Source: an uncultured Armatimonadetes bacterium | Lineage (GTDB): Bacteria > Armatimonadota > Armatimonadia > Armatimonadales > Capsulimonadaceae | Length of the DNA stretch: 64,000 nucleotides | NCBI GenBank assembly: GCA_963699265.1 | Contig: OY969427.1 | Span: 3,784,006 to 3,848,005 of the forward strand | Reading direction: 5' to 3' | Shown: positions 3,053 to 62,797 of the stretch, piece after piece | Layout of the letters: every line of letters begins with the position of its first letter | Numbering within the stretch: position 1 is the stretch's first letter | Position numbers and translations under genes: made by a program | Notes under the pieces: model-generated | Databases searched by the model: none | The model's input: only the letters and a program-made list of their open reading frames with translations | Told to the model about the DNA's origin: nothing

Positions 3053-3985
3053 CTAAGATTGCTCTTCCGATTCCGTCTGTGCCCGCGGCTCATCCGTGGG
3101 TGAAGATCGGCGCGCCACCCGCACCATTGCGGCGCGCAACAGGCGTCCATCGGACGTGAAGCCGCGACGCATCTCTTCGACAATGGTGTCTTCGGCCATC
3201 TCGTCGCCCTCGGCAATCTCTGCAATACCCATCGCTTCGTGAAGGTCAGGGTCGAACATTTGGCCGACAGTCTCAATAGGCACGATATCGTAACCGTGGA
3301 GAAATTTGTCGAAGTTGCGAAGAATCGCCTCTACCCCTTCAACAAGCTGATCTACCGTTTCGGTTTCTTTGGCGGCGACTAAGCTGCGTTCGAAATCGTC
3401 GATGATCGGCAGCACCTGCTTGATCATGCGTTCGTTCGCCTCCTGCACGGCGCGGTCGCGATCTTTTTCGCCCTTGCGGCGCAGGTTGATCAGGTCTGCA
3501 TGCGCGCGTCGGACATTGTTGCGCTCGGTTTCGAGTTGCGCACGCAGCCGTTCGATCTCAGAGAGTTCGCCGTTCGCAGCGGGTGGAGCATGCGATTCAA
3601 CGGAATGCCGCGGCTCAGCCTGCGGCTTTGCCGGGCGAGACCTGGACGCCTCGAAATCACGTATAAGGTCGCCGAGGTCCATGCGTCCAATAGTGGTACC
3701 ACCGACCGCGGGTGTCTCATCGAGATCGATGGACACCCGTCCCGGCGCTAGTTCCGGGAGGGGGCTGTCGAAGTCGATTACAGCAGGGACGGCGTGGATC
3801 GGCTCTAAATCGTCCGCTAAGGGAAAGACGTCATCGGCATCGTCAAATTCGGGCAGGTCCAACGAAAATACCGGCCCTTTCGTCTTACCGGATTTCTTGT
3901 CGCGCTCTTCGGCGGTGAGGAATGTCAGCTCGCCCGACTCCTCTGCATCAATATTTTCGTCGGGATCAACAGGTTCAATTGGCAT
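3053..3985 (-). CDS. grpE: nucleotide exchange factor GrpE with a ~130-aa acidic low-complexity N-terminal extension
   Basis: GrpE hallmarks are present in the C-terminal half (LPIIDDFERSL, FDPDLHEAMG, RLLRAAMVRV). The track frame 3053..4318 runs across two tRNA genes. The first sensible start is ATG 3985..3983 (MPIEPVDPDEN). Confidence 0.85.
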   Translation of the reverse strand: MPIEPVDPDENIDAEESGELTFLTAEERDKKSGKTKGPVFSLDLPEFDDADDVFPLADDLEPIHAVPAVIDFDSPLPELAPGRVSIDLDETPAVGGTTIGRMDLGDLIRDFEASRSRPAKPQAEPRHSVESHAPPAANGELSEIERLRAQLETERNNVRRAHADLINLRRKGEKDRDRAVQEANERMIKQVLPIIDDFERSLVAAKETETVDQLVEGVEAILRNFDKFLHGYDIVPIETVGQMFDPDLHEAMGIAEIAEGDEMAEDTIVEEMRRGFTSDGRLLRAAMVRVARRSSPTDEPRAQTESEEQS

Positions 3986-4105
3986 GAGAAAAACACACGG
4001 AAAAGACAGTTCGAAATACAGATTATGCGGGCAGAAAGTGAAGAAAGGAATGCCGTCGCTCAAAATATTGTACCTGCATTGGTTGCGATTGAGGTACGCG
4101 GAGGT

Positions 4106-4135
4106 TTGCCAGCTCAGGCAGATTGATGGTATAAT
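4106..4135 (+). promoter_or_regulatory. candidate sigma70 promoter for tRNA-Leu
   Basis: TTGCCA (4106-4111), 18-nt spacer, TATAAT (4130-4135), with an extended -10 TG at 4127-4128. It lies about 10 nt upstream of the tRNA 5' end. Confidence 0.5.
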
Positions 4136-4144
4136 TTCGGTCGC

Positions 4145-4228
4145 GGGCGAGTGGCGGAACGGTAGACGCGCTGGTCTTAGGAACCAGTTCCTTCGGGAGT
4201 GGGGGTTCAAATCCCCCCTCGCCCACCA
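4145..4228 (+). tRNA. tRNA-Leu (anticodon UAG), type II with long variable arm, CCA encoded
   Basis: Hand-folded cloverleaf. Acceptor GGGCGAG/CTCGCCC. Anticodon stem CTGGT/ACCAG with loop CTTAGGA. Long variable arm. T arm GGGGG-TTCAAAT-CCCCC. Discriminator A followed by CCA. Confidence 0.9.
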
Positions 4229-4246
4229 AAGTTTAGGCAATGCGCC

Positions 4247-4275
4247 TTGACATTGATATCGGCGGAGTGTATACT
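4247..4275 (+). promoter_or_regulatory. candidate sigma70 promoter for tRNA-Gly
   Basis: TTGACA (4247-4252), 17-nt spacer, TATACT (4270-4275). Confidence 0.55.
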
Positions 4276-4325
4276 TTCCATCTGTTCGGCGAACCTGTGC
4301 GTGGCCCGAACAAGACAACCCACCT

Positions 4326-4400
<75 letters not shown>

Positions 4401-4767
4401 GTTTCAGTTCGATCTTTGGCGAGATCGGCCCAGCCGTGCTAAGCAAAAAGTCAAGAGTGTCTTAGCGCGGCAAATTTCTGATTCGTAAGATCGATCCTTT
4501 GTTGCGAAATCACGCAGCATTCTCCCCCAACCCTTGAAGGCCGATTCGCCTTAACCACGAAGGTTTTCTGGTTTCTCCACCACGTCATCCGACAACGCCT
4601 TTAACAATGCGGCGCTGATGCGCTGCCTCCAAGCACTCCAAACCATCCTCATCAAATCCTGGAACTCGAATGGTCCGCATACTGAGTGGTCTCGGCACCC
4701 GTCTGGCAAACCCAATTCCAGGCGGCCAAGCATATTTTTGCGTGCCATAAATCCAGTGCAAAGTCGC

Positions 4768-59578: not shown

Positions 59579-60769
<1,191 letters not shown>

Positions 60770-60794
60770 GATCCACCCGGCTCGTTCCTCGCCA

Positions 60795-60842
60795 CCCTCC
60801 CGAAACGGGAGGGCAAGGTTCCCCTCCTTTCCGAAGGAGGGG
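60795..60842 (+). terminator. two tandem GC-rich hairpins downstream of tuf
   Basis: CCCTCCC-GAAAC-GGGAGGG (60795-60813) and CCCCTCCTT-TCCG-AAGGAGGGG (60821-60842). There is no T tract. Confidence 0.4.
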
Positions 60843-61011
60843 CTAGGGGAGGTTCTTGGTGGGAAGCGGCGTGCGGGGATGGGTTCGCCAAATGGCGGCC
60901 CGGGCCCGCGCACAGCGTTGAAGTTGCAAACTTTGCGACATTCGCGCTTTTATAGTTTTCAACTGCACATTGGTAACCGGCATATTGCCGGAAATAGAGG
61001 GATAGCTAGTT

Positions 61012-61320
61012 ATGCGTCGTGATAAAGTCCGAATTAGGCTTCGCGCCTTTGACCACCGTCTGCTTGATCAGTCCGCCGAAAAGATCGTCGAGACCGTGCG
61101 CCGCTCAGGGGCAAGAATTTCGGGGCCAGTTCTATTGCCGACCGAGATACAGAGAGTTTGCGTTCTGCGCGGCCCGACAATCGACAAGGAATCGATGGAG
61201 CATTTCGAGCGACGCACCCACAAGCGGTTGATCGACATCCTCGATCCCGGTCCAAAGACCATCGACGCTCTTGCCAGCCTTGATCTGCCGAGTGGCGTGG
61301 ATATCGAAATCAAGCTGTAG
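61012..61320 (+). CDS. rpsJ: 30S ribosomal protein S10
   Basis: [39 protein letters not shown]. Confidence 0.95.
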
Positions 61321-61334
61321 GCTGGGCTTTTTGC

Positions 61335-61778
61335 GTGAATGTTACTGCCGAATCCTACATTAGCGCAGCTACGGAAAACGCACAGTCGGCACTTTTTCTG
61401 TACAGGGATAATAAGAATTATCCTTTGGCGCACTATGTTGCGGGATTAGCCGTTGAATCTGCATTTCGTGCATTCGCGATGCGGGCAAATGAGCCATTTG
61501 ATGCTCGTCATGACTTAAGCTTTTGGTACCAGAAGGCGCATTTCGATACCTATGTGCCGGATTCGCAACTGCGACGGTTAGCCAGTGCGTTTGGTGTTGT
61601 TACTGCTCAGTGGCATAACTCACAACGCTATCATTCTTATGAACTGCTCGCTGCTCACCTGAAATCGATCAAACGAGACCGCGGGATTAAGGGCGATTTC
61701 GTTAAGGAGTTGACCCGCCACATGGTGGATTCGTCAATATTGATAGTTACATTTGCAGGTGTTAAATGGAAGAAGTGA
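61335..61778 (+). CDS. HEPN-like domain protein
   Basis: 147-aa ORF with a GTG start 14 nt after the rpsJ stop. Its helical pattern is AQSALFLYRDNKNYPLAHYVAGLAVESAFRAFA...ARHDLSFWYQKA...NSQRYHSYE. That resembles PF05168-type HEPN domains, which show Y..A...a.a.E.a.kA, H.L..L and a late R.Y motif. Confidence 0.55.
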   Translation: MNVTAESYISAATENAQSALFLYRDNKNYPLAHYVAGLAVESAFRAFAMRANEPFDARHDLSFWYQKAHFDTYVPDSQLRRLASAFGVVTAQWHNSQRYHSYELLAAHLKSIKRDRGIKGDFVKELTRHMVDSSILIVTFAGVKWKK

Positions 61779-62023
61779 TCAAAACGCTGCAGGAGTCCTT
61801 TTTGGGAATCGACACGTCCGATTTGGAGATCGATCCTTATTCTCATCGAATAACAGGCCGCGTGATTTGGGCTGGATTCGAAGAGAAGAGTCAGATTGAT
61901 CGGCAAGACATGCTTTGGGACGCGCTGGATGCCAGAATCCCTAAAGATTCACGGCCGTCCATTGGCATGATTTTGACGCTTACGCCCCTCGAAATTGCGG
62001 CTTATCAGGAAAATGCAGCGTAA
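61766..62023 (+). CDS. small BolA-like protein (divergent, lacks the conserved His residues)
   Basis: 85-aa ORF that overlaps the HEPN-like gene by 13 nt. The string VIKTLQESF..LEIDPYSH...RVIWAGFEEKSQIDRQDMLWDAL...SIGMILTLTPLE can be compared with the BolA pattern I..kl...f...L.V.DeS..H...V.vVS..F.G.s...RHR.Vy..L...iHAL...T.TP.E. Confidence 0.45.
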   Translation: MEEVIKTLQESFLGIDTSDLEIDPYSHRITGRVIWAGFEEKSQIDRQDMLWDALDARIPKDSRPSIGMILTLTPLEIAAYQENAA

Positions 62024-62173
62024 TTTAGTTTTGTGTCCTTGCAATCCATTGCAAGCATAGGGTAAACTGTTTCGTCGTTTGCGGATGTTTTTGAAGTCCG
62101 CGTTAGTTTGTTAGAGAACCCGCGTCACGCAAGGAAGGCCGTTAGGCTCCCCAGGTGCGCCGTGGAGGAAGAT

Positions 62174-62797
62174 ATGCCGGCTGCCATTTTAGGCACAAAG
62201 CTGGGGATGACCCAGATATTTGAGGCTGACGGTCGCGTCACGCCCGTCACCGTAATTGAGGCTGGGCCCTGCGTTGTTACGCAGGTCAAAACGGTCGAAA
62301 AGGATGGCTATTCCAGCATCCAGATTGGCTTTGGCACCCCCAAGGACAGCCGCCTCAATGAACCCCTTCGTGGACATTTCCGCGCCCATGGCGTCGAGCC
62401 TGCTCGTCATCTGACCGAGCTGCGCCTCGCCGAGGGCGAATCCCACCAGACCGGAGATACGTTCAAGGCCGACATTTTCGCTGAAGGCGAGAAGGTCTCG
62501 GTAACGGGCGTCTCCAAGGGCAAGGGATTTGCGGGCGTTGTCAAGCGATACCATTTTCATGGCGCCGACATGACGCATGGCTCGATGATCCACCGCAAGC
62601 CGCAGTCTTCCGGCGCGACCGACGCCGCGCGAACGTTCAAGGGCAACAAAAAGCCGGGCCACATGGGCTCTGAGCAAGTCACGCAGCAAGGTCTTAAAGT
62701 AGTCCGGGTCGATCCGGAAAAAAATCTCCTGCTTGTAAAGGGCGCGATTCCAGGCGCGAACGGCGGCCTGGTGCTTGTCCAGCGCTTTATCCGCTAG
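62174..62797 (+). CDS. rplC: 50S ribosomal protein L3
   Basis: MPAAILGTKLGMTQIFEADGRVTPVTVIEAGPCVV. GGAGGA lies upstream of the ATG at 62174 within track ORF 62108..62797. Confidence 0.95.
   Translation: MPAAILGTKLGMTQIFEADGRVTPVTVIEAGPCVVTQVKTVEKDGYSSIQIGFGTPKDSRLNEPLRGHFRAHGVEPARHLTELRLAEGESHQTGDTFKADIFAEGEKVSVTGVSKGKGFAGVVKRYHFHGADMTHGSMIHRKPQSSGATDAARTFKGNKKPGHMGSEQVTQQGLKVVRVDPEKNLLLVKGAIPGANGGLVLVQRFIR

Follow-up and report, generated by a model that had tools for sequence, protein, structure and literature searches.

Background

The described systems closest to the locus reported here are the HEPN-T (PF05168) and AbiV proteins, which are small standalone HEPN proteins in two-component loci, and the HepT-MntA systems, in which two overlapping small genes encode a HEPN protein and its partner. 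In HEPN-T and AbiV the arginine of the HEPN motif is kept, the motif histidine is replaced and there is an alternative conserved histidine (Anantharaman et al. 2013, PMC3710099, Table 1). The partner of HEPN-T is a minimal nucleotidyltransferase (MNT), and that of AbiV is an RNA; a lactococcal AbiV protein breaks down both 16S and 23S rRNA in vitro, and an RNA antitoxin restrains it (10.1101/2024.05.05.592566). Here we analyse a pair of small genes, ORF1 and ORF2, found between rpsJ and rplC in the S10 operon of an uncultured Armatimonadetes bacterium (contig OY969427.1); the window is the whole stretch of 64,000 nucleotides (nt) in which they lie. ORF1 encodes a predicted HEPN-fold protein and ORF2 a predicted BolA-fold protein, and this HEPN-BolA pair is a genuine, strictly linked two-gene module.

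The pair resembles HEPN-T and AbiV in that ORF1 encodes a small standalone protein within a two-component locus, modelled as the same helical HEPN bundle, with the arginine at the canonical position, the motif histidine replaced and an alternative histidine elsewhere. It differs from them in the marginal sequence similarity of the window protein (12.7 bits against the Pfam HEPN profile, under the 22-bit cut-off), in having a BolA-fold protein as partner and in being nested in housekeeping operons instead of adjoining restriction-modification genes. Furthermore, the upstream RNA antitoxin of AbiV (abiV2) has no match here, where only 9-15 nt separate rpsJ from ORF1 and the partner is a protein encoded downstream. 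HepT-MntA is alike in its two overlapping small genes, HEPN plus partner, in its chromosomal location and in its patchy occurrence. However, ORF2 lacks GSX10DXD, ORF1 lacks Rx4HxY and the gene order is reversed, the HEPN gene coming first in our case. Regarding the hotspots of defence and toxin-antitoxin (TA) genes, the likeness lies in a fixed slot between conserved genes, in highly divergent alleles in close relatives and in sharp breakpoints, whereas our slot is inside an essential, co-transcribed ribosomal-protein operon and always holds the same two-gene family. The literature searched contained no description of a HEPN-BolA pairing and no precedent for an S10-operon insertion of this kind; nor did it yield a publication text on PDC-M28, a candidate defence system of PADLOC that ORF1 relatives match weakly. 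We rate the pair as a putative HEPN-based two-gene conflict module of an unusual genomic niche.

The gene pair between rpsJ and rplC

The adjacency of rpsJ and rplC is among the most conserved gene orders in bacteria. In the ORF list of the window, the run rpsL-rpsG-fusA-tuf is followed by the S10 cluster, in which the stop codon of rpsJ and the ATG of rplC (62174) are separated by a gap of 853 nt (61321-62173). The features of this region are the following (L and P numbers are our handles for loci):

61012..61320, + strand: rpsJ (ribosomal protein S10), the upstream anchor, from the ORF list and the Pfam Ribosomal_S10 match of the identical gene in L001.
61321..61334, + strand: junction of 14 nt between rpsJ and ORF1, without Shine-Dalgarno sequence, by sequence inspection.
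61335..61778, + strand: ORF1, GTG start, 147 amino acids (aa), predicted HEPN fold, from the family alignment, Pfam/PADLOC, AlphaFold2 and Foldseek.
61766..62023, + strand: ORF2, ATG start, 85 aa, predicted BolA fold, from alignments, a profile search against the PDB, the structure model and Foldseek.
62024..62115, + strand: variable part of the ORF2-rplC spacer, from the sequence, partly conserved in L115 only.
62116..62173, + strand: conserved rplC leader with a two-tier stem-loop, from the alignment and consensus fold of 7 loci.
62174..62797, + strand: rplC (ribosomal protein L3), the downstream anchor, from the ORF list and the Pfam Ribosomal_L3 match in L001.

These coordinates agree with the initial annotation of the sequence, which had described a gap of this size holding two ORFs, the first starting 14 nt past the rpsJ stop codon and overlapping the second by 13 nt. 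The same arrangement is found in two independent assemblies, a 3.2 kb Logan contig and a contig of 5.07 Mb, and therefore the insertion is not a chimera. No second copy of the cassette was found in the 64-kb window. The low GC content that had been read as a hint of foreign origin also holds: the whole rpsJ-rplC gap has 47.8%, compared with 56-59% in the genes on either side, and along the sequence the value is 46-48% across the cassette versus 55-67% in the flanks, which places the cassette within the lowest 0.24% of the 690-nt windows of the 64 kb.

The gene caller of the public collection left ORF1 uncalled in the source genome (window 61335-61778, equivalent to L001 533-976), likely because of its GTG start without a Shine-Dalgarno sequence. 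The uncalled ORF1 is still intact and has every residue that is invariant in its family. The HEPN gene is thus probably absent from the annotation of this genome, a gene overlooked by annotation pipelines.

The scans of reference genomes and metagenomes recovered around 100 loci. In 95 of the 99 loci with room for a partner, the gene directly after the ORF1 homologue is a homologue of ORF2, the HEPN gene precedes its partner in every paired locus, and the overlap between both genes is conserved at 13-37 nt. Furthermore, the divergences of ORF1 and ORF2 are correlated (r=0.87). Two small, adjacent, co-oriented genes with a conserved overlap and coupled translation, recurring in several slots in two phyla, form the layout that is generically looked for in type II TA systems.

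The HEPN-fold protein

The ORF1 product is basic, with an isoelectric point (pI) of 9.5. The window proteins, used as single sequences, gave marginal matches only in Pfam, NCBIfam and PADLOC; for ORF1 alone these were the Pfam HEPN match mentioned above (E=0.15) and the PADLOC model PDC-M28A (1e-5). The family as a whole is more informative. We found 70 relatives sharing words with ORF1, and 902 representative relatives at E<=1e-3 (476 at 1e-10) in a library of 1.84 billion proteins; among the relatives listed, almost all are standalone proteins of 140-170 aa. When 66 relatives were compared with the profiles, 37 matched PF05168 HEPN at E<=0.01 (best 3.5e-6) and 61 matched PDC-M28A weakly (best E=6e-9). 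The HEPN_AbiV profile was matched by 5 of them (best E=2e-4) and not by the window protein.

The AlphaFold2 model of the ORF1 product had a predicted local distance difference test (pLDDT) score of 96.7. Its top Foldseek matches in the PDB were all HEPN domains (1wol, 1ufb, 4nqf, 2hsb and 3o10), with a probability of about 1.0 and template modelling (TM) scores of 0.58-0.69; the proteins matched were ST0689, TT1696, 4nqf, AF_0298 and sacsin. Against the HepT structures 5yep and 7bxo the model matched poorly (TM 0.36-0.46). The ORF1 profile had no relevant match among the PDB sequences, and the viral structure library returned only weak HEPN-like matches.

The residues Y34, G37, A39, V40, H59, W93, R98, G120 and W145 are invariant in the family and all of them are kept in the window protein. 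R98 opens the helix that follows alpha3, the canonical position of the HEPN arginine, and H59, in the 'ARHDL' loop, is the invariant alternative histidine of the family. Judged by the model and by these residues, the ORF1 product is a predicted HEPN-fold protein of the HEPN-T/AbiV-like type. Therefore, the HEPN signature seen earlier in the helices of ORF1 stands as regards the fold and the Pfam matches of the family, but the canonical Rx4-6H RNase motif does not appear in the family alignment.

The BolA-fold partner

The ORF2 product is acidic in the window (pI 4.4). As a single sequence it had no match in Pfam, NCBIfam or PADLOC, and a word-based homologue search found only ORF2 itself. Its relatives were gathered first from the loci and then by a profile search, which returned 142 proteins; several carry the JGI annotation 'BolA-like protein IbaG/YrbA', and a PF01722 match had been precomputed for two. 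In our own comparison 3 of 71 relatives matched PF01722 (best 8e-6). The family profile was also compared with the PDB sequences, where the best 14 matches were all BolA, the top one with E=4.6e-4 and nearly full length. Similarly, the structure model (pLDDT 94.5) had 22 top Foldseek matches that were all BolA, YrbA or the BolA domain of SufE1, with TM up to 0.74.

ORF2 thus resembles BolA/IbaG (YrbA, PF01722) in fold (TM 0.6-0.74 to 3tr3, 5nfk, 4pui and 4pug), in the annotation of some relatives and in motif order, since its F-x-G ... R-Q ... T-L-T-P-x-E mirrors the F-x-G ... R-[HQ]-R ... T-P-x-E of BolA. Nevertheless, the histidines that bind Fe-S clusters or glutaredoxin are replaced: the RHR of BolA corresponds to [D/E]-R46-Q47 in the ORF2 family, the position of the IHAL histidine is occupied by other residues and the family alignments hold no invariant histidine or cysteine, the only invariant residues being F38, R46 and Q47. 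ORF2 also differs from BolA/IbaG in being always paired with a HEPN gene, and no glutaredoxin was found among the recurrent neighbours of the pair. According to the model and the alignments, ORF2 is a BolA-fold protein minus the Fe-S ligand residues, as the initial annotation had proposed from motif order. Given the pairing with a HEPN gene, BolA-fold proteins may also act beyond the biology of Fe-S clusters and glutaredoxins. Since the defining features of HepT-MntA (nucleotidyltransferase partner, Rx4HxY and gene order) and of functional BolA (histidine ligands) are not found here, the module is a member neither of HepT-MntA nor of the functional BolA families, although it may work like HepT-MntA.

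We also considered ORF2 as an MNT antitoxin. This candidate was rejected, as it had been in the initial annotation, because there is no conserved G-S...D-x-D motif and the fold is that of BolA.

Among the weaker Foldseek matches of ORF2 were the BolA-fold subunits of the large subunit of the Toxoplasma mitoribosome (9i05 and 9g6k, ranks 20-21) and the minimal nucleotidyltransferase 2rff of Sulfolobus (rank 29, TM 0.61). More distant BolA-like proteins of 93-105 aa adjoin other small unknown proteins in L113 (4001-4695) and in the P0185 locus. The neighbour in L113 has 138 aa and is not HEPN-like, and the one in the P0185 locus has 131 aa and follows ilvD; therefore, partners of several kinds may exist for the BolA-like family.

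Host range and genomic slots

The distribution of the pair is patchy across two phyla, and all the named hosts belong to Armatimonadota or Planctomycetota (Phycisphaerae, Tepidisphaerales). The loci could be assigned to the following slots:

i) Between rpsJ and rplC. This slot is occupied in the window and in L115/L116, as well as in a second lineage formed by L002-4, L007 and L025-28.

ii) Between gltB and gltD, the genes of the large and small subunits of glutamate synthase. This second recurrent slot is occupied in nine loci plus L114, on contigs of Phycisphaerae or of Tepidisphaerales-like origin, with gaps of 6-34 nt where the genes were called. The copies are L105 6001-6701, L109 6001-6701, L114 3540-4273, L010, L011, L012, L016, L021, L039 and L062.

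iii) Other positions. One copy follows ilvD and others adjoin guaA or groEL.

A Pfam census of the 118 immediate neighbours found glutamate synthase, aldehyde dehydrogenase, GMP synthase, GroEL, HisG and class II aminoacyl-tRNA synthetase. The upstream neighbour was co-oriented with the pair in 44 of 59 loci (within 40 nt in 26 of them) and the downstream neighbour in 41 of 64, although the ORF caller behind these counts is crude. As regards the suggestion that this could be a module directed at the ribosome, the same pair is found in gltB|gltD, after ilvD and elsewhere, and therefore the context does not indicate a specifically ribosome-linked function. That the pair recurs in core operons other than S10, for example gltBD and ilvD, suggests a general strategy, which may be either selfish persistence or a way of monitoring gene expression in the host.

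On the Planctomycetota-like contig L107, a HEPN-MNT pair of the canonical type, with a HepT-like protein and a nucleotidyltransferase (3893-4538), was seen 1.5 kb upstream of a HEPN-BolA pair. Both pairs are on one contig and therefore the two module types coexist in one genome.

Exchange of alleles within an old slot

Our most informative result comes from the S10 slot, as in the comparison of the close relatives L002 and L026. Their rpsJ and rplC products are each 98% identical, with a synonymous divergence (dS) of 0.35-0.43, whereas in the cassettes the identity is 47% for ORF1 and 29% for ORF2 and dS is saturated. Along the DNA of these close relatives, 90-95% of the positions agree in tuf and rpsJ. 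Exactly from the rpsJ stop codon the identity drops to 26-56%, and 98% is reached again around 50 nt before the ATG of rplC. Actually, the conserved rplC leader is the downstream edge of the variable segment. Between the window and its nearest relative, L115, the identity is 95% in tuf, 98% in rpsJ and 87% in rplC versus 62% in ORF1 and 55% in ORF2. The cassettes of the gltB|gltD slot have likewise diverged more quickly than the genes around them, and in part not in parallel with these.

We built a tree from the concatenated ORF1 and ORF2 of 71 loci, in which the alleles of the S10 slot formed a single clade (bootstrap 80/100) and those of gltB|gltD came together without strong support. Within the S10 slot the cassette tree contradicts the flank tree: L002 and L007 were grouped in 100/100 replicates, though the rplC of L007 is only 85% identical to that of L002, while the grouping of L002 with L025 and L026 predicted by the flanks appeared in 0/100. 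The hosts that share this slot are well diverged (81% identity in S10 between the window and L002, 88% in EF-Tu). Given the single clade and the diverged hosts, the cassette entered the S10 slot once and long ago, so that this is an old slot common to a lineage and not a one-off insertion. Since then, alleles have passed from one lineage to another through recombination at the conserved flanks, namely the 3' end of rpsJ and the rplC leader. A whole lineage thus tolerates a two-gene insert at rpsJ-rplC, and this insert is the fastest-changing and horizontally exchanged segment of the operon.

Within allele lineages, the ratio of non-synonymous to synonymous divergence (dN/dS) was 0.09-0.13 for ORF1 and 0.13-0.20 for ORF2, which corresponds to purifying selection on both genes. 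The GC deficit seen in the window is general: the cassette lies on average 5.5 points below its flanks and under both of them in 29 of 37 loci (p=1e-8). This low GC suggests a foreign or separate history of the cassette.

Decay was seen in ORF1. L115 (1222-1224) and L116 (536-538), which come from two independent samples and have 1 difference in 1,207 nt, carry a TAA at codon 47 of ORF1, a nearly invariant tyrosine in the relatives, and have the remaining ORF1 frame and ORF2 intact. Premature stops in ORF1 were also found in L071, L077 and L096, and none was found in ORF2 among 100 distinct sequences. Decay of ORF1 only is the pattern expected if the first gene is harmful or dispensable.

Probable expression from the host operon

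All the S10-slot loci have a gap of 9-15 nt between rpsJ and ORF1. ORF1 has no Shine-Dalgarno sequence, and in several loci its start codon is weak (GTG here, ATG or TTG in relatives). Since ORF1 begins in this way so close to the rpsJ stop codon, its translation is probably coupled to termination at rpsJ, and would depend on the ribosomes that terminate there. ORF2 has an AGGTG 4 nt ahead of its ATG. The promoter and terminator scan predicted no intrinsic terminator in the insert, and the pair is likely to ride on the S10 transcript, in agreement with what had been expected from the short gap after rpsJ.

Interpretation of the module

We consider that the module could be TA-like or abortive-infection-like, with a new BolA-fold partner and expression from host operons, and we give this reading an even chance of being right. 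The evidence counted for it comprises the strict pairing, the two folds, the HEPN-T/AbiV residues, the PDC-M28A matches, the replacement of alleles, the low dN/dS within allele lineages, the GC deficit, the decay of ORF1, the opposite charges of the two window proteins and the occurrence in several operons. In such a module the basic HEPN protein would be the effector and would act on RNA, which it would either cleave or bind, with rRNA as a candidate target by analogy with AbiV, and the acidic BolA-like protein would be its cognate neutraliser. Both proteins would be made at low level from the host operon transcript. Since the pair would depend on the expression of a core operon, a phage or a stress that makes host expression collapse could set the effector free, although this step is speculative.

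Several observations weigh against the TA-like reading. In the ORF1 family the histidine at +4 to +6 from the arginine is replaced by an acidic residue and, the Rx4-6H motif being absent, the protein may be non-catalytic. The pI of the partner family is variable (interquartile range 5.0-9.4), and neither ORF2 nor any of its relatives matches a PDC-M28 partner model. The neighbours are housekeeping genes and not defence islands or mobile elements: the census of the 118 neighbours found no integrases or transposases, the only defence-like signal being four DNA methylases, and the phage and plasmid searches with ORF1 found no relatives. A toxin within a highly transcribed operon looks risky, and in some non-ribosomal copies the upstream spacer is 130-970 nt long, and therefore those copies may have their own promoter. 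The slot-specific clades indicate that inheritance has been largely vertical. Finally, the disruption of ORF1 versus ORF2, 4 cases against 0, is not significant, ORF1 being 1.7 times longer.

Part of this evidence fits another explanation, the main rival, in which a non-catalytic HEPN protein and a KH-like BolA-fold protein form a non-toxic pair of RNA-binding regulators or chaperones that tunes the translation or stability of host-operon mRNA, or the assembly of ribosomes or enzymes. Roles in RNA binding without catalysis have been proposed for HEPN domains of this kind, with MtlR and human sacsin as examples (PMC3710099), and MtlR, an inactive HEPN protein, is a regulator of the mannitol operon. 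The lack of Rx4-6H agrees with this, as do the constant co-orientation of the pair in housekeeping operons with no mobile-element genes nearby, the slot-specific clades under purifying selection and the BolA-fold mitoribosome subunits among the Foldseek matches. However, the host operons (S10, gltBD and ilvD, besides the guaA and groEL neighbours) are functionally unrelated, which argues against an operon-specific regulator. The replacement of alleles between near-identical genomes, with saturated dS, the systematic GC deficit, the patchy spread over two phyla and the toleration of ORF1 nonsense alleles also count against this explanation, and we hold it to be rather improbable. The pair might also be a purely selfish addiction hitchhiker without benefit for the host, protected because an imprecise deletion between essential genes would be lethal, and spread by homologous recombination via the conserved flanks. 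Its tight nesting between essential or core genes, the breakpoints exactly at the conserved flanks, the low GC and the occasional decay of the toxin are what such an element would leave. Nevertheless, its mechanism overlaps that of the TA-like module and differs only in who benefits, sequence alone cannot separate it from defence, and the low dN/dS of both genes (0.09-0.20), together with retention over family-level divergence (rpsJ 81%), suggests sustained selection; we consider a purely selfish pair unlikely.

An extension of the TA-like reading, which we regard as a long shot, is that HEPN-BolA pairs are 'operon-embedded guard' modules. They would have no promoter of their own and be coupled in translation to an upstream core gene such as rpsJ, gltB or ilvD. 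The balance of effector and neutraliser would report core expression, and shut-off by a phage would free the RNA-targeting effector; via the highly conserved flanks, homologous recombination would spread the alleles between species, and the S10 operon would be an immunity hotspot. On the contrary, spurious ORFs or an assembly artefact are refuted by our results and have practically no probability left. It is true that ORF1 is uncalled in the source genome and that the window proteins fall below the Pfam thresholds, but independent assemblies agree, there are hundreds of homologues, both models are confident (96.7 and 94.5), and the pairing is conserved under purifying selection. Among the checks that had been proposed for the two genes, the profile searches at family level and Foldseek support both folds, and the conservation of the ORFs supports the presence of the pair, as does the agreement of independent assemblies.

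Spacer and leader upstream of rplC

The spacer between ORF2 and rplC has a variable part and a conserved one. In the variable part (62024-62115) the initial annotation had noticed a palindrome overlapping a promoter that could restore the expression of rplC. Both elements are present: the inverted repeat (8-2-8, 62038-62055) has the exact arms CTTGCAAT and ATTGCAAG, and TTGCAA-18-TAAACT (62039-62068) agrees with 8 of the 12 positions of the sigma-70 consensus. However, three such repeats occur in the window, the promoter is below the scan threshold and the region is not conserved across the S10-slot lineages, since it is absent from L002, L007 and L025-28, and its -10 region is conserved in L115 only. 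There could be a sub-lineage-specific internal promoter or attenuator between the cassette and rplC, which would not be a general feature. The spacer also carries the short hairpin GCGGA...TCCGC, with a T-rich run behind it. The window (62056-62112) and L115 (around 1905-1960) have in common a block ATAGGGTAAACTGTT.CGTCGTT.GCGG, after which come a short GC hairpin of differing stem sequences and a run rich in T; the other S10-slot lineage lacks this block.

The conserved part is the leader of rplC, of around 58 nt, which is found in every S10-slot locus (62116-62173 in the window; L002 5750-5808; L007 1260-1318; L025-L028; L115 around 1962-2019). A variable hairpin lies between its invariant flanks ACCGCGTCACGCA and AGGTGCGCCGTGGAGGA. 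The stem-loop spans 62120-62165, and its 3' strand extends to the first two G of GGAGGA (62164-62169), the Shine-Dalgarno sequence. The consensus fold of seven sequences has 16 pairs, 2 of them covarying. An Rfam search of 60700-62300 gave nothing relevant, and no match for the leader. This leader may be a native element of translational control of rplC.

Upstream of rpsJ, the tuf-rpsJ spacer (60770-61011) is longer in the window (242 nt) than in L002 (62 nt) or L115 (19 nt). In the window the scan reported a terminator-like hairpin in this spacer, at 60934-60946, and a hexamer TTGCAA is located near 60926.

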